From IMG/VR virus record IMGVR_UViG_2547132277_000011: a DNA stretch of 8,833 bases, one strand, 5' to 3'. Positions within the stretch are counted from its first letter, which is position 1, and every line of letters begins with the position of its first letter. The notes below the pieces were generated by a model. The model searched no databases and was not told the DNA's origin. It saw only the letters and a list, made by a program, of their open reading frames with translations. Origin of the DNA: a virus (taxonomy: Duplodnaviria > Heunggongvirae > Uroviricota > Caudoviricetes). Position numbers and translations under genes: made by a program. This document shows, piece by piece, positions 1 through 8,833 of the stretch.

Positions 1-267
1 TTACTCTGCAGGTGAAGTCGGCCACTCAATATCAGGTGCGGTTGATGTATCAACACAGTTCAGCAACACCCGATACTTCTTCCAGGCTTCCAGCAACGAG
101 TTTTCTTCCTCCGTTGCGATCTCCAGATCTACAGCATCCTGAAGTGGCGCAATATGCTCACTGAATTCCTGGATGTAGAACTGTGTGGTGACGGTCTTCC
201 AGCCATTCGGCTCCTGCTGTATCGAAGCATACCAGGCTATTTCAATATCGCTATGCTGCGGCAGCAT
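1..267 (-). CDS. tfa: Tail fibre assembly (Tfa) family protein, short 88-aa form
   Basis: Complete ORF: ATG at 267..265, TAA at 3..1, with AAGGGG about 5 nt upstream of the ATG. The C-terminal ~55 aa ([53 protein letters not shown]) matches the conserved C-terminus of enterobacterial lambdoid Tfa proteins as I recall it (e.g. K-12 TfaR ...[25 protein letters not shown]...). The N-terminal ~35 aa is not recognisable. Very acidic (about 17 D/E versus 4 K/R). Confidence 0.7.
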
Positions 268-275
268 TTAACCCC

Positions 276-304
276 TTGTAATTCATCGCCACAATTGATT
301 TAAT
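276..304 (+). promoter_or_regulatory. Candidate sigma70 promoter for the methyltransferase gene (TTGTAA, 17-bp spacer, TTTAAT)
   Basis: -35-like TTGTAA at 276..281 and -10-like TTTAAT at 299..304 with a 17-bp spacer, 20 to 30 bp upstream of the ATGs at 324/336, in an AT-rich intergenic region. Sequence pattern only. Confidence 0.3.
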
Positions 305-323
305 TCACAAATAAAACTATAAC

Positions 324-992
324 ATGGTGAAATTAATGAAAAAAAACACAGATGATGGGGCTAAAATTTACACACCACTTACCCTAAAGCTTTATGACTG
401 GTGGGTTTTGGGAGTATCAAATCGGCTTGCATGGGGATGTCCTACAAAGGAACACCTTCTTCCACACTTTCTGGAACATTTAGGTAACAACCATCTGGAT
501 ATTGGTGTTGGAACTGGGTTTTACCTTACTCACGTACCTGAGAGTAGTCTGATATCTTTAATGGATTTGAACGAAGCTAGCCTGAACGCGGCATCGACAA
601 GGGCTGGGGAATCAAAAATTAAACATAAAATTAGCCATGATGTTTTTGAACCTTATCCCGCGGCATTACATGGTCAATTTGATTCCATTTCCATGTTTTA
701 CCTTCTTCACTGCCTGCCTGGAAATATATCTACAAAAAGCTGTGTAATACGCAATGCGGCGCAGGCCTTAACTGACGATGGAACTCTATACGGAGCCACA
801 ATTCTTGGTGACGGCGTTGTGCACAATAGCTTCGGTCAAAAACTGATGCGCATTTACAATCAAAAAGGCATCTTTTCAAACACAAAAGATTCCGAAGAAG
901 GCTTAACACATATACTCTCAGAGCATTTCGAGAATGTTAAAACCAAGATTAAAGGTACTGTAGTAATGTTTTCCGCTTCAGGGAAAAAATAG
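324..992 (+). CDS. ybcY: Class I SAM-dependent methyltransferase, UbiE/COQ5-like small-molecule type (not a DNA MTase by motif)
   Basis: 222-aa ORF with glycine-rich SAM-binding motif I (LDIGVGTG) and an upstream YDWWVLGVSNRLAWG segment resembling the UbiE-type motif. No DPPY/NPPY or PC/ENV DNA-MTase motifs seen. Start may be ATG 336 (GGTGA 5 nt upstream) rather than 324. Gene is markedly AT-rich (about 35% GC by hand count of the first 100 nt) compared with the neighbouring phage genes. The symbol is assigned from recalled synteny (a putative SAM MTase, ybcY, lies between tfaD and tfaX in K-12 DLP12), not from verified sequence identity. Confidence 0.85.
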   Translation: MVKLMKKNTDDGAKIYTPLTLKLYDWWVLGVSNRLAWGCPTKEHLLPHFLEHLGNNHLDIGVGTGFYLTHVPESSLISLMDLNEASLNAASTRAGESKIKHKISHDVFEPYPAALHGQFDSISMFYLLHCLPGNISTKSCVIRNAAQALTDDGTLYGATILGDGVVHNSFGQKLMRIYNQKGIFSNTKDSEEGLTHILSEHFENVKTKIKGTVVMFSASGKK

Positions 993-998
993 CATCCA

Positions 999-1033
999 GC
1001 CGCAGCACGTTCTTGCGCACGACGTGCTGCGGC
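999..1033. terminator. 12-bp perfect inverted repeat (GCCGCAGCACGT / ACGTGCTGCGGC) with an 11-nt loop, 7 bp after the MTase stop; possible bidirectional terminator or protein-binding site
   Basis: Arms at 999..1010 and 1022..1033 are exact reverse complements. No clean U-tract on either strand, so terminator function is uncertain. Confidence 0.35.
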
Positions 1034-1046
1034 ATAATCTCAATGA

Positions 1047-1175
1047 TTACTCCCTGACAGGGTTCGTAGGCCACTCAATATCAGGTGCAGTTGATGTACC
1101 AACACGGTTCAGCAACACCCTGCATGCCTTCCATGCCGCCAGCAATGATGTTTCCTCCTTCGTTGCATATACTGC
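1047..1175 (-). pseudogene. tfa: Tail fibre assembly (tfa) gene 3' remnant, C-terminal ~42 codons only
   Basis: Minus-strand frame translates to [42 protein letters not shown], homologous to the C-terminus of the 1..267 gene. Nucleotides about 1069..1170 are roughly 78 to 80% identical to 20..125 by hand alignment. The frame is closed by TGA at 1176..1178, so no N-terminal part remains. Confidence 0.65.
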
Positions 1176-1439
1176 TCACCTTTTTCACCCACGATTAACC
1201 AACAGCCAGATTCGCAGGCACGCCCCACCACGGCATATTCATACGCTTGCCATGTCCGAACATTTCAATCCAGCGATATTATGCCTGGGGTGTTCAAGCG
1301 CAATGAAGTACGTATTGTATCTTCGCGATTTTTTATAGGCTAATTGACGCGCAATTCTGAGCGGGGAGCGCACAATCAAACAGCACAGAATGGATCGCTG
1401 ATATTTATCCTTTTGTCGGTTTATCAAACAACAAGAGAG

Positions 1440-2654
1440 TCAATAGCGGATTGTCCCTACATCCATTTCTGGCGAATCCACTAACCAGAAATTATCTGGC
1501 TTTACAGCCAGAATGATCCAGGCAGTGTTTGTTGTTGATGACCAGGAAGGCAGCACATCGTATGCCGGGTCATCGCAAGAATCACGATAACCGTACTCAT
1601 TAAAAAGTGGAGCCATTGCTGCCACAAGATTCACCGCATTCAGCTCATTACCCAGCTTGCGCTCAAAAAGTGCCACACCTGCCGTTCCTTCCACCCACAC
1701 GCCACGGCTGTGACCACTATAACCATAATCAGGGTGGTACGGTGTGTAACCCGTGGTTTCCCTCGTACCAAATAAAAAACGCCCCATATATTTTCGGCAC
1801 TTAGCCGCTTTCTCAGCATCAATATTGGCAACAAACAATCCGCCCCAGGAAGACTGATCCAGCGCCGCTGCGTTGTCATAGTGGGTTGAATGAACCCCCT
1901 GTCGAAATCGGCCTTCATCTTCCACCCACAGACCTCTGATGATGCTCTTTGCCAGCCTGTCAGCCCGCTCACTGAAACCGTCAAATCCCAGCCGTCCCAT
2001 CAGTTCAAACAAAAACCAGATATCAACGTTATGCTCCAGTGCGCACCATTCGGCGACAAAAGTTTCATCAAAATTGCCGTCCACATAACGCCCCTGCCCC
2101 CCTTTATACAGGCCTTCACGCAGGTCGCCTGGTGTGCTCACCAGAAAAGTATCCAGCCAGGCAATGCCTGCCAATAGCTTTTCTCTGACCCGCGCAGTCT
2201 GAGTACCGTCCGGATACTTCTCCAGATAGAAAGCAAGAGCATAATAAACCCATGCCGCATTGCCCAAGCGGTAATAGGTACGCGGTGACATGGCAGACAG
2301 CCTGTTAACAAAAAACTTTACTCCACCGTTTTCATCAACAAGCGCACACAAGCCCGCAACGTATCTTTCTACAGCCTCATGTCGCTGAACCATCAACGCC
2401 AGTGCTGCCAGCGCCTGGTCATACGTGTAACACCGATCTTTCATCACCCTGATCACTTCGGGGTCTGCGTCCTCCGGCATCCAGTAGCTACGAATGAGCA
2501 GTGGAAACTCCAGCGTTGTGATCCACGCATTATCCTCAATCCGAATAAGACGAAACTGTTTTGCTCCCGTCCAGCAACGTCTGAAATAGAAAGTTCCGTC
2601 ACTATTCAAATTAGCGTCGCCGTTAAAATACTCTCCGGTTGTATAAGCATACAT
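1440..2654 (-). CDS. Hypothetical protein, 404 aa, function unknown (possibly an alpha-helical enzyme-like fold; alternatively the C-terminal domain of a larger deleted gene)
   Basis: Uninterrupted 1215-nt ORF with enterobacterial-looking codon usage; ATG at 2654..2652 with a weak SD. The frame is closed by TGA 12 codons upstream (2693..2691). No signal peptide or Walker motifs seen. Not recognisable to me as any lambdoid morphogenetic protein. Confidence 0.75.
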   Translation of the reverse strand: MYAYTTGEYFNGDANLNSDGTFYFRRCWTGAKQFRLIRIEDNAWITTLEFPLLIRSYWMPEDADPEVIRVMKDRCYTYDQALAALALMVQRHEAVERYVAGLCALVDENGGVKFFVNRLSAMSPRTYYRLGNAAWVYYALAFYLEKYPDGTQTARVREKLLAGIAWLDTFLVSTPGDLREGLYKGGQGRYVDGNFDETFVAEWCALEHNVDIWFLFELMGRLGFDGFSERADRLAKSIIRGLWVEDEGRFRQGVHSTHYDNAAALDQSSWGGLFVANIDAEKAAKCRKYMGRFLFGTRETTGYTPYHPDYGYSGHSRGVWVEGTAGVALFERKLGNELNAVNLVAAMAPLFNEYGYRDSCDDPAYDVLPSWSSTTNTAWIILAVKPDNFWLVDSPEMDVGTIRY

Positions 2655-3235
2655 ATCGACTTTATACTTTTCAGGTTCAGCCTGTTGCTCTCATCACTGG
2701 TCATGGGAATAAAGTCCGGCTCGAGCGCCTCCAGCCAGAAATGAACACCGGCAGAAGGCGTCAGGCTGTTTATGCGCCCGGAAACCATCTGGGCAAACAC
2801 CTCACCATCGCGCAGCCAGGTACGCAGCATCAGACGTTCCAGCATCGGACGGGTAAACTGCCCGGTGACCTCCGGACTGACAGACCATTCACTCCATCGG
2901 GTGCGTATCTCCGCTGCCAGATCACGGGCAATGGCCCCATTGCGTAATACCGGATGTGGCTCGACAATAATCCCGTTTTTCCCCACCACCCGTTCTTCCA
3001 GCTTGTCAAATACACCAATGACCAGATCGTGGTTGTTATCAAGGTAACGGGCCTGCTCACGTAACGACACGGCCCCGTACTGGCTTAACTGATCGGCAGT
3101 TCGGTTCTCCCGTCGGGCTTTGTGTGTCCGCGTCGTTTTTACGGCCTCATAAGCCTGGATCACCGCACGGGAACGCAGCCTTGCCGCTTTCCATCCTGGT
3201 GAAAAAACGCCAATCACATCATCAAGAATTGCCAT
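2606..3235 (-). pseudogene. B: Portal protein gene, N-terminal fragment (about 205 codons of an expected 500 or more); truncated near 2655..2700
   Basis: ORF begins MAILDDVIGVFSPGWKAARL... at ATG 3235..3233, overlapping the gpW stop (TGATG), which is the position of the portal gene in the lambda order Nu1-A-W-B. It stops at 2606 after about 209 codons, the last ~28 of which (SNRLNLKSIKSICMLIQPESILTATLI) look non-portal. The ORF-track start at 3307 is an upstream in-frame artefact inside W. Confidence 0.7.
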
Positions 3236-3453: not shown

Positions 3454-5546
3454 CCTCCAGAAGTCAGCCAGGGGTTAACATCGTCAGTTACTGTTTTCTT
3501 CCGTTTTTGTTTTTTAACAGGCGTGGATACCGGTTCCGGTGAGGATGACGGTTCGGTACTGTCCTGGACACACTCCAGCCAGGTTTCCCGGCTCGCCCAC
3601 TCCGGTGCATCCGGCCAGCGGATCTTTTCGTATCCATGCAGAATGACCAGAGCCTCGGCATACACCATCAGGTCAAAAGCTTCGTTGGCACCGCGACCCG
3701 GCTTACTCCATTTCCCGTCACTGCTCCGCTCTTCATACGTCAGTTCGTCGTAAAACCAGCTCCCCAGCCAGTCAGGGAAATGCACATAGCCTGGACCTGG
3801 CGAGTCACGCCATAACGCGTTATTCACCCGGTCTTTCAGGGCATCCGTCTGAAGAAGCCAGAGCGGCACATCACCTGCGGCCTGCGCCCGGCGGCCCGTT
3901 CGTCCGGTGTTATCAGGGAATGTACGGCTGATCAGTTTTGCGCGCCGGATGCTGTCCCCCTTAAACAGGTAAATACGTTTACCAAGGCCATCACGACGGC
4001 AACGACGCCAGAATTTATAGGCATTATCAGTGACCCCGTCTTCACCGCCGGAGTCCACCGCCATTGCCATCAGTCGCATTTGTTGAGAAGGATCGGAGGC
4101 CAGCGGCCAGCTTTTATGAAAAACATCCGTCAGCAGGACATCCCAGTCTTCCGGATAGCTGGCCGGATCAATTCGCTGGCTCTCCCCGTCGCTGTCACCG
4201 CGCAATGACTGCGTGATGTTGTAACGATCAATAATCCAGCGTTCGCCACGGCTGCCATAGCCCGTTACCTGAACCACAAAACGGCGATGACGTCCCGCCT
4301 GCACATCCACTGTCGCCACAAGGAAATTAACGCCATCCGGCACACTGCGGGAAGGAACTGGCTCTGCCCGCTGCTCAAGCAGTTCACTTTTTCGTTGCTC
4401 CATGCTGGCGCGGGGAAGATAAGGTAATCCCCAGTCGGTATTGATAACCGTCTTGAGTGTTTCTTCACTTCCGGTTGTCTCGTATTCCTGTTCTGCAGTA
4501 AGCAGTTTGTAAACGAGTTGCGAGAGTGTCTGGTAAGCAGCTGCCGGACCCTCCATCCAGAATGACGCAATACGTGAGCGTCGGGGATCACCATAACGAC
4601 TGCCATCCGCATTGATGGATTCACCATCCCGCAACCAGACCCCACGTCCGTTCAGCTCACGTTTTTGTTCAGGCATAATCCGTCCTGAACAGGAAGGACA
4701 CTGAATATAAGCCGCCTCACTTGCCAGCACGGGAGCGGCAATATCACGGAAACCAGCAACCACATCGCCGCAGGGCTGAAAATACTCACCACAGTGTGGA
4801 CAAGGCCAGTACCAGCGACGGCGATCGCCACGGTTATAGAGCGACAGTATCCCCGTGGTTGGTGGAGCCTCATGCGGTGAAGTCCGTCGCCATTTCACAT
4901 CCTTCACATCCCTGCCGGGGGAACTCTCCACAAGCGTCATACCACTGGACATAAATGTTGTGGTACGTTTTGAGGCAAGAGAGAAAGCATCCCCCTCGCC
5001 ATCAATATCTTCCGGAAAACGGTCATAATCCGTCAGCGCGACGCATTTATAATCTGATGAGGACATGATATTGACTGACGGCCAGCCGATTTTCAGGTAG
5101 TTACCAGCAAGGAATGTTCTGTCATAAACGTTGTTGTCATTTTTGTTCGGACTCAGGCGACTGACCACTTCCGGGCTGACGCGAAACGTTCTGGCGAGTC
5201 GTTTTTTGGAGTGTTCGCGGGCTTTTTCCTCCGTCATCTGTATGATCAGCATATCAGCAGGATCGCAAATCACGTTGTAAATCACCCAGCCGTCAATCAG
5301 GCCGATAGTCTTACCGGTTCGTGCCGGGCCAACAAATATCACTGCGTCGTATTCACGCGAGGCCAGGCAGTTCATCGGCTCAATAACATACGGTGCCACC
5401 AGCGGATCCCACGGGACTGAATTCCCGGCCCCCATGGGCACCCGCATATACTGAGCAACGGCATCAGCAACCCGCATTCGTCTCGGTGCGCGAAGGATAT
5501 AACCTGAATCGGTTCGTGCTGCCTTTGCGGTTTCCTGATTCAGCAT
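3444..5546 (-). CDS. A: Terminase large subunit (lambda gpA family), 700 aa, apparently intact
   Basis: Walker A-like AVIFVGPARTGKT near the N-terminus; WYWPCPHCGEYFQ resembles lambda gpA ...ACPHCGEEQYL; C-terminal ...VYAEALVILHGYEKIRW resembles lambda ...CFVYALAALRISISRW. ATG 5546..5544 overlaps the Nu1-like stop (TAATG). Confidence 0.95.
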   Translation of the reverse strand: MLNQETAKAARTDSGYILRAPRRMRVADAVAQYMRVPMGAGNSVPWDPLVAPYVIEPMNCLASREYDAVIFVGPARTGKTIGLIDGWVIYNVICDPADMLIIQMTEEKAREHSKKRLARTFRVSPEVVSRLSPNKNDNNVYDRTFLAGNYLKIGWPSVNIMSSSDYKCVALTDYDRFPEDIDGEGDAFSLASKRTTTFMSSGMTLVESSPGRDVKDVKWRRTSPHEAPPTTGILSLYNRGDRRRWYWPCPHCGEYFQPCGDVVAGFRDIAAPVLASEAAYIQCPSCSGRIMPEQKRELNGRGVWLRDGESINADGSRYGDPRRSRIASFWMEGPAAAYQTLSQLVYKLLTAEQEYETTGSEETLKTVINTDWGLPYLPRASMEQRKSELLEQRAEPVPSRSVPDGVNFLVATVDVQAGRHRRFVVQVTGYGSRGERWIIDRYNITQSLRGDSDGESQRIDPASYPEDWDVLLTDVFHKSWPLASDPSQQMRLMAMAVDSGGEDGVTDNAYKFWRRCRRDGLGKRIYLFKGDSIRRAKLISRTFPDNTGRTGRRAQAAGDVPLWLLQTDALKDRVNNALWRDSPGPGYVHFPDWLGSWFYDELTYEERSSDGKWSKPGRGANEAFDLMVYAEALVILHGYEKIRWPDAPEWASRETWLECVQDSTEPSSSPEPVSTPVKKQKRKKTVTDDVNPWLTSGGWL

Positions 5547-6040
5547 TACTCCTCCCGCTGTAATTCCTCCTCATCATCCGCACCTGCTTCGGTCACCCGC
5601 AGGGCTATCTGATCGCGCAGATCATCAATAATGGACTGAACACGGCTCACAGCGGCAGGCTGCAGACCGCAGTCACGTTCAAGAATATCCGGTAATGTCT
5701 CCAGCACCTGCACGACCGCTTTTGCCCAGATGGCAAACTCTCGTCTGACATCACTGGCCGGAATGAGTTGTGCCGTTTCCTGTTCGAACTTAAGACGCTC
5801 ACGTTCAGACTGATACCAGGCTTTGCGCTCATGCGCGTCCATTTCGCCTTCTGCAACCGGCGGTGGTAATGCCAGAAATGCCGACACAATATCAACCACC
5901 CGATAAAGCTTGAGGTTGCTTTCATGCCCCCCTGCAACGGGTAGATTTTGCAGCCTTGCCGCAGCAGTCTGGCGATGTACACCTGACAGTGCCGCCAGTT
6001 GACTGATATTCAGCGTCAGATTTTTTAACTCTCGATCCAT
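5546..6040 (-). CDS. Nu1: Terminase small subunit (lambda Nu1-like), 164 aa
   Basis: N-terminal helix-turn-helix-like segment (LNISQLAALSGVHRQTAAARLQ) analogous to the lambda Nu1 DNA-binding N-terminus. GGAG SD 5 nt upstream of ATG 6040. Located about 175 bp downstream of the cosN-like sequence, as in lambda. Confidence 0.85.
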   Translation of the reverse strand: MDRELKNLTLNISQLAALSGVHRQTAAARLQNLPVAGGHESNLKLYRVVDIVSAFLALPPPVAEGEMDAHERKAWYQSERERLKFEQETAQLIPASDVRREFAIWAKAVVQVLETLPDILERDCGLQPAAVSRVQSIIDDLRDQIALRVTEAGADDEEELQREE

Positions 6041-6876: not shown

Positions 6877-7344
6877 CTACTTAATGCGCTGGGTGCGGAT
6901 ATATTCCTGCGCCCCTTCCAGTTGCTTCTGCATCGTCATCAACCGTTCTCTGAGGGTGAAATAATCCCGTTCAGCGGTGTCTGCCAGTCGGGGGCTGGTT
7001 GCATTATCCATGCTGGTGGGTCCGGTGGCTTCACGCACGGCTGCGGAGCAACTGGCATTGACCCGCAGGCGCTTACGACCAGCGGCAACATCAGCGCGCA
7101 GAGTTTCATTTTCAGTTTTCGCATCGGCTAACTCCTTCGTGTATTTTGCATCGATCGCAGCAACATCACGCTGACGCTGCTGCATGTCAGCGATGGTGGC
7201 GGTCGCCTGCTTCAGCTCACTGACTTTTTTATCACGCTGTTCTTTGTAGGCGATGGCGTTATCACGGTAATGATTCAGCCCCAGACTAAGCACAACACAG
7301 GCCACCAGCAGCATAGCAATCACTACATACAGAACACGGTTCAT
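6877..7344 (-). CDS. Rz: Rz i-spanin (inner-membrane spanin), 155 aa from ATG 7344
   Basis: MNRVLYVVIAMLLVACVVLSLGLNHYRDNAIAYKEQRDK...DAKYTKELADAK...SPRLADTAERDYFTLRERL.TMQKQLEG matches lambda Rz near-colinearly. The ORF-track start at 7428 is an upstream GTG; I prefer ATG 7344, which aligns with the lambda Rz N-terminus. Confidence 0.9.
   Translation of the reverse strand: MNRVLYVVIAMLLVACVVLSLGLNHYRDNAIAYKEQRDKKVSELKQATATIADMQQRQRDVAAIDAKYTKELADAKTENETLRADVAAGRKRLRVNASCSAAVREATGPTSMDNATSPRLADTAERDYFTLRERLMTMQKQLEGAQEYIRTQRIK
6939..7124 (-). CDS. Rz1: Rz1 o-spanin (outer-membrane lipoprotein), 61 aa, embedded out of frame within Rz
   Basis: MRKLKMKLCALMLPLVVSACGS...CVKPPDPPAWIMQPAPDWQTPLNGIISPSENG matches lambda Rz1 (MLKLKMMLCVMMLPLVVVGC...PAWIMQPPPDWQTPLNGIISPSERG). 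Lipobox LVVSAC and a proline-rich body are present. It lies wholly inside Rz in another frame, as in lambda. Confidence 0.9.
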   Translation of the reverse strand: MRKLKMKLCALMLPLVVSACGSMPVAPQPCVKPPDPPAWIMQPAPDWQTPLNGIISPSENG

Positions 7345-7612
7345 ATCACCACCAACGGATTGCCCAGACCAGAACAGCGACCGCCACAAGGCGAATTGCA
7401 AAGGCCGTTGCCCGAATAAAATCAGCACTCATCTGTTTAAATAAATTGTTGTGTATGCAACCAGTGCAGTACAAATAATCCATGCAACTGGCGTCAGTAT
7501 ATGTCTGATGCCCCGGCATACCGCGATGATTTTTGCGGCATCGTCAGCACCCTGCGAAGTTGTTTCTGCTTTTATCATCAGTTGCCATGTCCCTCATGAC
7601 ACCCATCACCAC

Positions 7613-7956: not shown

Positions 7957-8149
7957 TTACTTTTATTCACTTACCTTTTGCCAGTTTGCAGGATTTCGTG
8001 TTATCCGCTCGCGGGAGCACACGCCATTTTTCAGCAAAATATTCTGCTAGCTGTCGATACCCCAGCACACCAGTGCCGCTTCCTGGTCACGGCGAATAAC
8101 CTGTCCATAGCAGTTATTTGAACGTATGCGGCAATCGCGTCCACCATCT

Positions 8150-8833
<684 letters not shown>

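Follow-up and report, generated by a model that had tools for sequence, protein, structure and literature searches.

Cargo genes, or morons, are carried 3′ of fibre genes in a number of phages, as with lom and bor in lambda, Z/fun in P2 and, in the lambdoid prophages of O157, the loci for type III effectors. In the K-12 prophage DLP12, which is inserted at argU, the segment tfaD-ybcY-tfaX (near appY and ompT) is annotated as a tfa fragment, a methyltransferase (MTase) and a second tfa fragment. Literature searches for ybcY, tfaX and DLP12 turned up passing mentions only and no study dedicated to the module itself. In lambda, the interval from stf-tfa as far as the beginning of the b region contains a single full tfa, directly followed by ea47, and neither an MTase nor a second tfa end. 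According to the passage of PMC9608196 that cites North et al. 2019, Tfa combines a variable N-terminal fibre-binding domain with a conserved C-terminal helical domain.

The stretch analysed here, 8,833 nucleotides long and referred to below as the window, is a defective, decayed lambdoid prophage of E. coli inserted at potB/potC, with its edge abutting potB at the start of potC. Its positions 21-1166 align to K-12 as one BLAST segment, at 95% nucleotide identity, and all three parts recur there without change of order or orientation; the likeness to DLP12 that an earlier, sequence-only reading of this DNA had pointed to is therefore genuine. The module is common to both, and the prophages, one at argU and the other at potB/potC, are different. 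This is the ybcY-tfaX cargo module that many E. coli lambdoid prophages carry just 3′ of their side-tail-fibre genes, and it is a known kind of mosaic prophage scar, real but ordinary. Taken as a whole, the locus is in all likelihood best explained as such a moron, with the tfa scars acting as passive homology arms.

A repeat search of the window returned a single long direct repeat (family D1), whose arms at 17..117 and 1066..1166 align without gaps over 101 nt at 82% identity, slightly above the 78 to 80% that had been estimated by hand. BLAST of positions 1-300 against the remaining window gave the same pair and nothing else, with an E value of 4e-25 that rules out chance similarity, and in a MAFFT alignment the similarity widens to about 1-125 versus 1050-1175, and then ends. 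Translated on the minus strand, both arms give Tfa C-termini and both match Pfam Caudo_TAP. The sequence-only reading had the coordinates, strands and peptides of the two tfa ends right. Both copies match the 3′ end of lambda tfa at ∼88%. Among the surveyed loci, identity between the first copy (copy A) and the second (copy B) ranged from 80% to 96%, a spread in keeping with distinct tfa alleles that now and then undergo gene conversion. We conclude that each repeat is the 3′ end of a different tfa allele and that both are, as had been proposed, recombination scars at the tail-fibre locus: they are Tfa fragments, their junctions are shared between genomes, and fibre modules have been exchanged next to them.

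If this very genome had recently duplicated its tfa end in tandem and the MTase had then been inserted between the copies, the repeats would also be direct and close (1049 nt from start to start). The copies are however just 82% identical, their identity across loci is that of different tfa alleles, and the same structure with the same junctions recurs across thousands of genomes and several integration sites, as well as in free phages. This local origin was rejected on divergence and distribution, and we consider it scarcely credible.

Copy A is an 88-codon, TfaX-like chimeric open reading frame (1..267, minus strand). The Tfa C-terminal domain occupies codons 31-88 (nt 1 to ∼174), residues 31-87 matching positions 75-131 of the 131 in the Caudo_TAP profile (E 6.5e-25), and codons 1-30 (∼175-267) are not Tfa-like; homology to the tfa genes of lambda and PhiR26_1 stops near nt 165-174. 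Since copy A thus keeps more tfa homology (∼1-165/174) than copy B, it is the truncation of copy B that determines how long the repeat is in the window. In PHROGs, copy A matches phrog_2341 over 88/88 residues, and its N-terminal part matches phrog_3893; PGAP annotates it as a tfa pseudogene with a missing N-terminus, and no family was found for it in NCBIfam. Three different 3′ ends of copy A exist, homology to the window beginning at position 1, at 17-21 or at 43, and a 101-codon form has its last 14 Tfa codons exchanged for unrelated sequence. At the other end the arrangement is nearly fixed. Copy A keeps the same register beside the MTase in 88 of the 89 loci with sufficient flank, and is absent from the remaining one, while the MTase ATG lies 206 nt away in 86 of these 88 loci, the two others having a distance of 199 nt. 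Positions 118-330 are fully covered in 3436 genomes, and among the matches listed every row fully covering them was annotated as tfa followed by methyltransferase.

We considered whether copy A could be a working mini-Tfa, consisting of the C-terminal trimerisation domain only and transcribed divergently from the MTase, that poisons or modulates fibre assembly in lambdoid phages sharing the cell or superinfecting it. Of 88 loci, 69 retain an open frame of 88-101 codons, one PHROGs family is exactly 88 residues long, and changes between alleles fall at the three codon positions as 13/12/23, a third-position excess with a crude dN/dS of ∼0.45. A tfaX-side promoter within the spacer is listed by Shimada et al. 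2014 (PMC3946193), and the part retained is a discrete domain, as far as the Tfa account in PMC9608196 goes. Against this, 7 of 30 unique alleles, K-12 tfaX among them, have internal stops, the 3′ end exists in three versions, the 101-codon one without the last 14 Tfa codons, and the synonymous bias could come from functional tfa genes through recombination. Moreover, UPEC-type remnants have deleted copy A yet keep the MTase, and ∼360 MTase-positive genomes have no place fully covering 118-330 (3796 versus 3436). A mini-Tfa is thus improbable in our view, even though copy A, with its open frames, its 88-residue family and a crude dN/dS that is not 1, is not clearly dead. Our preferred reading is that copy A is a chimeric fossil, older than the scar formed by copy B.

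Copy B (1047..1175, minus strand) is a scar holding the last ∼40 codons of a resident tfa. Its open frame has just 42 codons and matches Caudo_TAP profile positions 95-130 (E 8.8e-13), and PGAP again calls a tfa pseudogene with a missing N-terminus. The scar abuts the 3′ remnant of a small membrane-protein gene (1176..1314, minus strand), which was recognised by translation and by alignment with ev243 gp25 and the surveyed locus L052, and which carries an additional 62-nt deletion. Beyond it lies the C-terminal part of a tail-fibre gene (1440..2678, minus strand, ∼404-412 codons), a match to the tail-fibre family phrog_13714 (E 1.8e-249, profile positions 228-631) for which an NCBIfam search gave no family, and which differs in type from lambda stf. 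This fibre part is joined at ∼2675-2680 to a truncated portal gene, the two being annotated by PGAP as "phage tail protein, missing N-terminus" and "portal, missing C-terminus", and homology with other genomes stops at 2680. Neither tfa copy has the full Tfa architecture of two domains and ∼190 aa, and neither lies directly 3′ of its own fibre gene, since the gp25-like remnant separates copy B from the fibre part and copy A follows the opposite-strand MTase. Both are gene fragments, not functional family members.

Phage ev243 shares the junction of scar B, as do at least 700 E. coli genomes and, in part, ∼1700, and this junction persists across alleles that are only 84-87% identical. For useless DNA, such a divergence would make it old; gene conversion importing tfa polymorphism could account for this. 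Across the 92 surveyed loci, the B side carried a full tfa in 25, the 42-codon scar of the window in 20, other truncations in 17, the K-12 type in 4 and no adjacent tfa in 26, counts that are descriptive only, as the loci include many near-identical prophages and are not independent samples.

In nine related loci, that of PhiR68_2 included, a Pin-type serine recombinase gene and ynaE lie between a full tfa and the MTase, which raises the question of whether the tfa ends are relics of a Gin/Cin/Pin-type invertible fibre segment. Such segments, however, hold their alternative tfa inverted, and the copies are direct here and in every surveyed locus. In addition, the sequence fused to copy A is not that of a fibre, no fibre-tip gene lies upstream of this copy, no recombinase gene was found in the window, and the long inverted repeats of the window are weak and unrelated to the tfa locus. 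This origin was rejected on the direct orientation of the copies, and it appears very improbable.

Between the two tfa ends, on the opposite strand as had been described, lies a YbcY-family class I SAM-dependent methyltransferase gene (324..992, plus strand, 222 codons as annotated; Pfam Methyltransf_12/23/25/11). The true start is likely the ATG at 336, the alignment to phrog_2132 beginning at residue 5 and M5 being invariant in 34 homologues. GC content is 40.5% in the gene, 50-53% in the flanks and 28.6% in the upstream spacer. The frame was intact in 89 of the 92 loci and none of the 36 unique alleles had an internal stop; with synonymous and nonsynonymous changes at 24:19 (crude dN/dS ∼0.22), the allele comparison indicates a gene that is intact and under purifying selection. 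It is kept even in a minimal DLP12 remnant, int′-tfa′-MTase-ompT. The gene is foreign, AT-rich DNA and probably encodes a prophage-expressed, host-modifying product.

As to its substrate, searches of Pfam, NCBIfam and folds matched no DNA-methyltransferase family or fold, only generic class I families, and a role in DNA methylation or anti-restriction is thus unsupported by family, sequence or fold. Weak sequence matches were to UbiG, JHAMT, RquA and PmtA, and the top-ranked fold and sequence likenesses were to PmtA, JHAMT, and phosphoethanolamine and natural-product methyltransferases. The AF2 model has a pLDDT of 90, and its best fold match, 8ys9, reaches a TM of only ∼0.6 with 15% sequence identity; against the NCBIfam PmtA equivalog the protein scored 15.7 bits for a cut-off of 390, so that this is a resemblance only. 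On the predicted structure, the enzyme resembles small-molecule or lipid methyltransferases rather than DNA methyltransferases. Homologues in Enterobacter, 61-64% identical, have no tfa ends nearby, one of them adjoining a Peptidase_S74 fibre fragment, and their genomic context gave no clue to function. The PmtA-, PMT- and UbiG-like fold is what suggests a lipid or small metabolite as substrate. Going further, the intact gene might be a lysogenic-conversion enzyme acting on a membrane lipid or small metabolite, and the tfa end plus hairpin a selected, portable linker for cargo; we put this forward tentatively and judge it rather unlikely. If true, such a linker would make the MTase, IpaH-like effectors and pin mobile among lambdoid phages.

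The spacer 5′ of the MTase contains predicted sigma-70-like hexamers, TTGATT-17-TATAAC (295..323, plus strand). These were spotted by eye and then matched to a published list, Shimada et al. giving this same string for ybcY, in the ybcY/tfaX spacer, from RpoD-holoenzyme SELEX and with an H-NS mark. A consensus promoter and terminator scan of 1-1500 made no calls, the hexamer site included. With its last letter one base 5′ of the annotated ATG, the putative −10 hexamer would cut off the GGTG that precedes the likelier start (336), and the true promoter may therefore lie elsewhere.

The convergent ends of the MTase and of copy B are separated by a hairpin with a perfect 13-bp stem (999..1033), which folds as RNA at −27.7 kcal/mol (z −4.65); neither strand shows a T-run beside it. 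Hairpins of the same family were found 3′ of the MTase in 92 of 92 loci, with a T-run next to them in some variants, and homology stops at 1032/1038 in 26 loci; the conserved MTase module has its right-hand boundary at the hairpin. After lambda tfa, the same hairpin occurs with one stem pair changed on both sides. This constancy is what would be expected if the tfa end plus hairpin were kept as a functional non-coding element, for instance a terminator or RNA-stability element serving both the late operon and the convergent cargo. Such a role would account for the hairpin and leave unexplained the tfa coding sequence, 100-170 nt long, that lies past it; copy A has no hairpin downstream in the genome of the window, and the covariation amounts to a single pair. 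We regard this function as unlikely, though it deserves more credit than the other alternatives considered here, and retain the reading of the tfa ends as passive arms.

MTase DNA was found at 4881 places in 3835 of 5426 complete E. coli genomes (∼71%), at ≥95% nucleotide identity save for one record at 90-95%. The module is also borne by isolated lambdoid phages, namely ev243, 2G7b, PhiR26_1, PhiR29, PhiR30, PhiR49, PhiR68_2, Kati and Turner. The suggestion that the MTase is a swappable cassette held in part. It can be present or absent: lambda has the tfa and the hairpin without it, and the surveyed loci L002 and L050 match at ∼98% on both flanks, L002 lacking the MTase and carrying a single hybrid tfa copy. 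In this empty site the left part is A-like and the right part B-like, with the crossover inside a 35-nt stretch identical in A and B. Because an MTase-less locus carries one A/B hybrid copy, gain or loss of the cassette proceeds through the repeats; the pair is as compatible with deletion as with insertion. A different gene replacing the MTase in the same register between two tfa ends was found neither among the 92 loci nor in spread samples, and the expected variability of cargo in this slot did not materialise, the same MTase being present at all 4881 places and copy A keeping one register in 88 of 89 loci. Such a constant MTase and left flank come close to what the sequence-only reading itself had said would speak against swappable cargo.

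What varies is the fibre side, together with extra cargo beside the MTase at the conserved hairpin (an IpaH-like effector, or pin with ynaE), the MTase itself being invariant. Exchange of the fibre side is seen between two phages. From ompT through the MTase to the equivalent of window position 1166, ev243 and PhiR26_1 are 99.5% identical; beyond it they carry unrelated fibre modules, followed by 93% identity in the fibre N-terminus, lom and J.

We infer the following order of events. The Tfa C-terminal helical domain is conserved across otherwise different Tfa proteins, and for that reason the 3′ stretch of tfa provides natural homology between different phages. Copy A would be the older fossil, 30 foreign codons joined to 57 tfa codons, which became attached to the MTase gene once and may have travelled with it ever since. 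Copy B would be the end of the prophage's own tfa, left when an ancestor swapped its stf-tfa for another fibre module, the crossover on the left being in the N-terminal region of the fibre and the junction on the right within tfa; because this junction fell inside the gene, ∼40 tfa codons and the downstream hairpin would have been left behind. The repeats would have remained passive, as homology arms for RecA- or Red-type insertion or deletion of the MTase plus one repeat, and fibre modules would likewise be exchanged through repeat homology.

To phage genomicists the scar anatomy should come as no surprise, and the locus is of use as a well-populated, clean example of lambdoid prophage evolution at the tail-fibre end. 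Each time a fibre module is replaced, the 3′ end of the former last gene stays behind, and the window contains three such nested remnants, the gp25-like remnant, scar B and the chimeric copy A. The conserved C-terminal coding patch of tfa also acts as a homology arm for cargo movement. For annotation, the lesson is that both "tfa" calls are fragments and that the MTase is the gene deserving attention.

Compared with K-12, the promoter-like string and the hairpin are identical, and the two loci differ in their state of decay: in K-12 a frameshift disrupts ybcY and tfaX contains an internal stop, whereas both frames are open in the window. That the K-12 copy is a pseudogene may, as a conjecture, be the reason why the MTase went unstudied. 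On the other side, a longer part of tfa survives in K-12 tfaD, which is joined to a terminase remnant, whereas copy B of the window is a 42-codon scar fused to the gp25-like remnant. The phages PhiR26_1 and ev243 carry the unit copy A-MTase-hairpin at 96-99% identity to the window, with the 101-codon copy A and its other 3′ end, beyond which come a hydrolase gene and ompT. The scar B junction of ev243 is exactly that of the window, while PhiR26_1, unlike the window, has a full 194-codon tfa at the B position. With morons in general, the module shares being an extra gene of deviant GC, present or absent between close relatives (L002 versus L050, and lambda without the MTase), as well as the occurrence of an IpaH-like effector beside the MTase in related loci. 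Its putative promoter- and terminator-like signals would be a further likeness. It differs from them in that the cargo stays attached to a fossil tfa end, and in its product, an uncharacterised methyltransferase.

The window holds a sole long direct repeat, between 17-117 and 1066-1166 (101 nt, ungapped, 82% identical). When positions 1-300 were compared by BLAST with the remaining window, this pair alone was returned (E 4e-25), and in a MAFFT alignment the similarity began at the stop codons and ended at ~125/1175. Both arms lie on the minus strand, translate to C-termini of the tail-fibre assembly chaperone Tfa and match Pfam Caudo_TAP, copy A (1-267) at profile positions 75-131 of 131 (E 6.5e-25) and copy B (1047-1175) at positions 95-130 (E 8.8e-13). 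Between them, on the plus strand, lies the methyltransferase (MTase) gene (324-992), which matches class I SAM-methyltransferase families of Pfam. GC content is 40.5% in this gene, 28.6% in the spacer before it and 50-53% in the flanks. The sequence-only reading had described two tfa 3' ends in direct repeat around an opposite-strand MTase, and had proposed checking the repeat by BLAST; the description was correct, and the comparison confirmed the repeat.

Ten E. coli chromosomes are 100% identical to window 1-2700. In one strain with the same region, B2C, it adjoins potB, and the prophage breaks the start of potC. Along the minus strand come first the lysis genes, split by an IS21-family element, then a DUF1441 small-terminase-like gene, the large terminase gene, a short head-tail gene, and a portal gene of the lambda family. 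This portal gene is cut after its first ~210 codons, and a deletion joint at ~2675-2680 fuses it to ~404 C-terminal codons of a tail-fibre gene, after which come copy B, the MTase (opposite strand) and copy A. As all head and tail genes are missing, the prophage is defective. The tail-fibre C-terminal region (1440-2654, minus strand) is matched by tail-fibre families of PHROG and by no family of Pfam or NCBIfam; the annotation of one genome calls it a 'glucosidase family protein'. At 8207-8833 (minus strand) and 8053-8151, the IS21-family element is inserted in the lysozyme gene, with istB inside the window and istA beyond it, and the B2C annotation has lysozyme fragments on either side of the element. 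An Rz-like lysis gene (6877-7428, minus strand) holds in another frame a 61-codon ORF from the ORF list (6939-7124, minus strand) with a lipoprotein-like signal (LVVSAC) at its start, which suggests a putative Rz/Rz1 pair.

To survey the flanks, 92 loci with an MTase of at least 98% identity, taken from the window's own genome, K-12, three phage records, 80 IMG/VR contigs and species-representative genomes, were put in register with the window. Copy A was found in 88 of the 89 loci having enough flank. The distance between its core and the MTase ATG is 206 nt for 86 of these 88 and 199 nt for the remaining two. An open frame of 88, 89 or 101 codons is kept in 69 loci; elsewhere the frame is broken, K-12 having 24 codons. 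Its 3' extremity takes three forms, with window homology starting at position 1, 17-21 or 43; in the 101-codon form, unrelated sequence stands in place of the final 14 codons of Tfa. Across the E. coli collection, 3436 genomes cover the whole of window 118-330, which comprises the spacer and the part of copy A outside the repeat, and every fully covering match listed is annotated as tfa beside methyltransferase. In a minority of E. coli loci copy A is missing as far as the equivalent of position 238, for example the UPEC-type DLP12 remnant int'-tfa'-MTase-ompT. This minimal remnant is seen at two loci of the argU region (L102, L103), with copy A deleted to that point and the MTase annotated as intact.

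The copy B side is the variable one. Many of the 92 loci are near-identical prophages, so that the following class counts are descriptive only: full-length tfa in 25, the exact window-type 42-codon scar, always with a gp25-like gene next to it, in 20, other truncations in 17, the K-12 type in 4, and no tfa end within 400 nt in 26. In these last 26, homology ends at 1032/1038, the outer base of a hairpin (999-1033), beyond which lie a gene for an IpaH-like NEL E3-ligase effector (15 loci), ynaE and a Pin-type recombinase (9) or other sequence (2). The effector gene, with LRR and NEL E3-ligase domains, stands in L011 (5985-7628) just past the hairpin, between the MTase and a DUF4376/fibre module; the same position is occupied in L013, L015, L017-19, L024, L027-29, L065, L068, L087, L089 and L090, and these loci come from Shigella flexneri, E. 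coli and provirus contigs. Two further loci, L014 and L020, carry two MTase-hairpin-tfa arrangements ~4.7 kb apart at one prophage end (1-212 and ~4450-5570), with ompT and a hydrolase gene between. MTase and copy A are thus a module that hardly varies, the variation lying in the fibre side and in the extra cargo at the hairpin. The idea of a swappable cargo survives only as the presence or absence of one fixed cassette; it is the fibre module that is exchanged, and further cargo is added at the hairpin.

Copy A is itself composite. Its homology to the tfa genes of lambda and of the lambdoid phage PhiR26_1 ends near nt 165-174, and codons 1-30 of its 88-codon ORF do not resemble Tfa, matching instead the N-terminal part of another small phage family, phrog_3893; it is therefore a chimera. 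The hairpin, with a 13-bp perfect stem (-27.7 kcal/mol, z -4.65), follows the MTase in 92/92 loci, a T-run coming next in some variants. In lambda this hairpin comes immediately behind tfa, and both partners of one stem pair are altered. In many loci the hairpin and spacer of the copy B side are repeated downstream of copy A (86% match to window 1000-1068), so that the unit originally repeated comprised hairpin and tfa 3' end.

The origin of copy B can be seen by comparing two isolated lambdoid phages. PhiR26_1 and ev243 are 99.5% identical from ompT through copy A, MTase and hairpin to the equivalent of window 1166, past which they are unrelated, ev243 having gp25, gp24 and another tail protein, and PhiR26_1 the 5' three quarters of tfa plus the side-tail-fibre gene stf; they are again 93% identical in the fibre N-terminus, lom and J. 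The difference is a fibre-module swap with its right junction inside tfa. In ev243, gp25 (a 97-codon membrane protein) stops directly before the kept tfa codons ('...[23 protein letters not shown]...'), and the same junction is found in the window. A 131-nt junction probe (1110-1240) matched at 84-100% identity; its coverage was at least 80% in 700 genomes and partial in 1718. Directly beside the scar, the window keeps the gp25-like small membrane-protein gene as a 3' remnant only (1176-1314, minus strand), with a further 62-nt deletion relative to ev243 and the collected locus L052. Three nested 3'-end remnants consequently lie downstream of the fibre gene: gp25', tfa' B and the chimeric tfa' A. 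Such nesting is to be expected if, whenever the fibre module is replaced, the end of the gene that had been last until then stays behind. These results support the earlier proposal of a recombination scar at the tail-fibre locus.

Tfa proteins bind the fibre through a variable N-terminal domain, and their C-terminal helical domain is conserved (PMC9608196, citing North et al. 2019). The kept tfa pieces correspond exactly to the latter, which is the stretch likeliest to be common to different lambdoid phages, and hence the likeliest crossover point. Inside single loci, identity between A and B ranges from 80% to 96%, which fits different alleles with occasional gene conversion. Five loci (L021, L044, L054, L059, L060) have a copy B cut at the equivalent of window 1120 and 94-96% identical to their own copy A, suggesting probable conversion between the two.

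One lambdoid prophage at ompW (L002) has the window's fibre gene without the MTase. Compared with the MTase-bearing locus L050, its left part, as far as and including the copy A position, is 97.8% identical, and its right part, beginning with the copy B hairpin, 98.4%; these two matches overlap by 170 nt. In a four-way alignment, its single copy is on the left identical to copy A of L050, including hairpin variants, and on the right identical to copy B, the switch falling inside a 35-nt stretch, around the tfa stop codon, that is identical in A and B. This is the product that would be expected from homologous recombination between the repeats, MTase and one repeat being deleted or inserted, in either direction.

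The MTase, a very common and conserved enzyme of the YbcY family, falls in phrog_2132, a family of unknown function. Since its homologues and the PHROG profile begin at residue 5, the ATG at 336 is its likelier start. Homologues of 56-69% identity occur across Enterobacterales, those of Enterobacter being chromosomal and without tfa ends nearby. In another association of MTase and fibre remnant, an Enterobacter chromosome (L097, 4336-5663) has a 61% identical homologue directly downstream of a Peptidase_S74 (endosialidase-chaperone) tail-fibre fragment, between flhE and a DUF1090 gene. Against solved structures and curated families, matches to UbiG, JHAMT, RquA and PmtA were weak. The AF2 model is confident (pLDDT 90), and its closest folds are bacterial phosphatidylethanolamine N-methyltransferase, JHAMT, and phosphoethanolamine and natural-product methyltransferases (TM ~0.6, identity 13-21%), with no DNA methyltransferase among the top fold matches. 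Of the 92 loci, 89 have an intact ORF, and the three without one belong to the K-12 lineage. Its 36 unique alleles have no internal stop, variable sites at codon positions of 12/6/25 and a crude dN/dS of ~0.22, compared with 7/30 unique alleles with stops, 13/12/23 and ~0.45 for copy A. TTGATT-17-TATAAC at 295-323, identical in K-12, has been proposed as promoter of ybcY, at an RpoD-holoenzyme SELEX site marked as H-NS-bound (PMC3946193); it is a predicted promoter, awkwardly near the start codon.

Of 5426 complete E. coli genomes, 3835 contain DNA of the MTase (268-1046), at 4881 places (at most 4 per genome), with identity of at least 95% except in one record (90-95%). E. coli-type MTase and tfa DNA, 97-100% identical, was also seen on short contigs of metagenome bins labelled Bacillus, Planococcaceae and Segatella copri (L088, L095, L100), most likely by contamination of the bins. 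K-12 MG1655 matches window 21-1166 in one aligned segment at 95% identity, annotated as tfa' (internal stop), methyltransferase (frameshifted) and tfa' (missing N-terminus), with appY and ompT as neighbours; the resemblance to the DLP12 arrangement tfaD-ybcY-tfaX, pointed out in the sequence-only reading, is supported. Among isolated lambdoid phages, PhiR26_1 has the order J-lom-stf-tfa (194 codons)-MTase-short tfa'-hydrolase-ompT, and PhiR68_2 stf-tfa-pin-ynaE-MTase-short tfa'-appY-ompT; in ev243 another tail protein is followed by two small genes, by a scar that has no annotation and is identical to copy B of the window, and by MTase and short tfa'. Annotations of the arrangement already exist for K-12 and for thousands of genomes, and it agrees with the standard view of how lambdoid phages evolve by modules.
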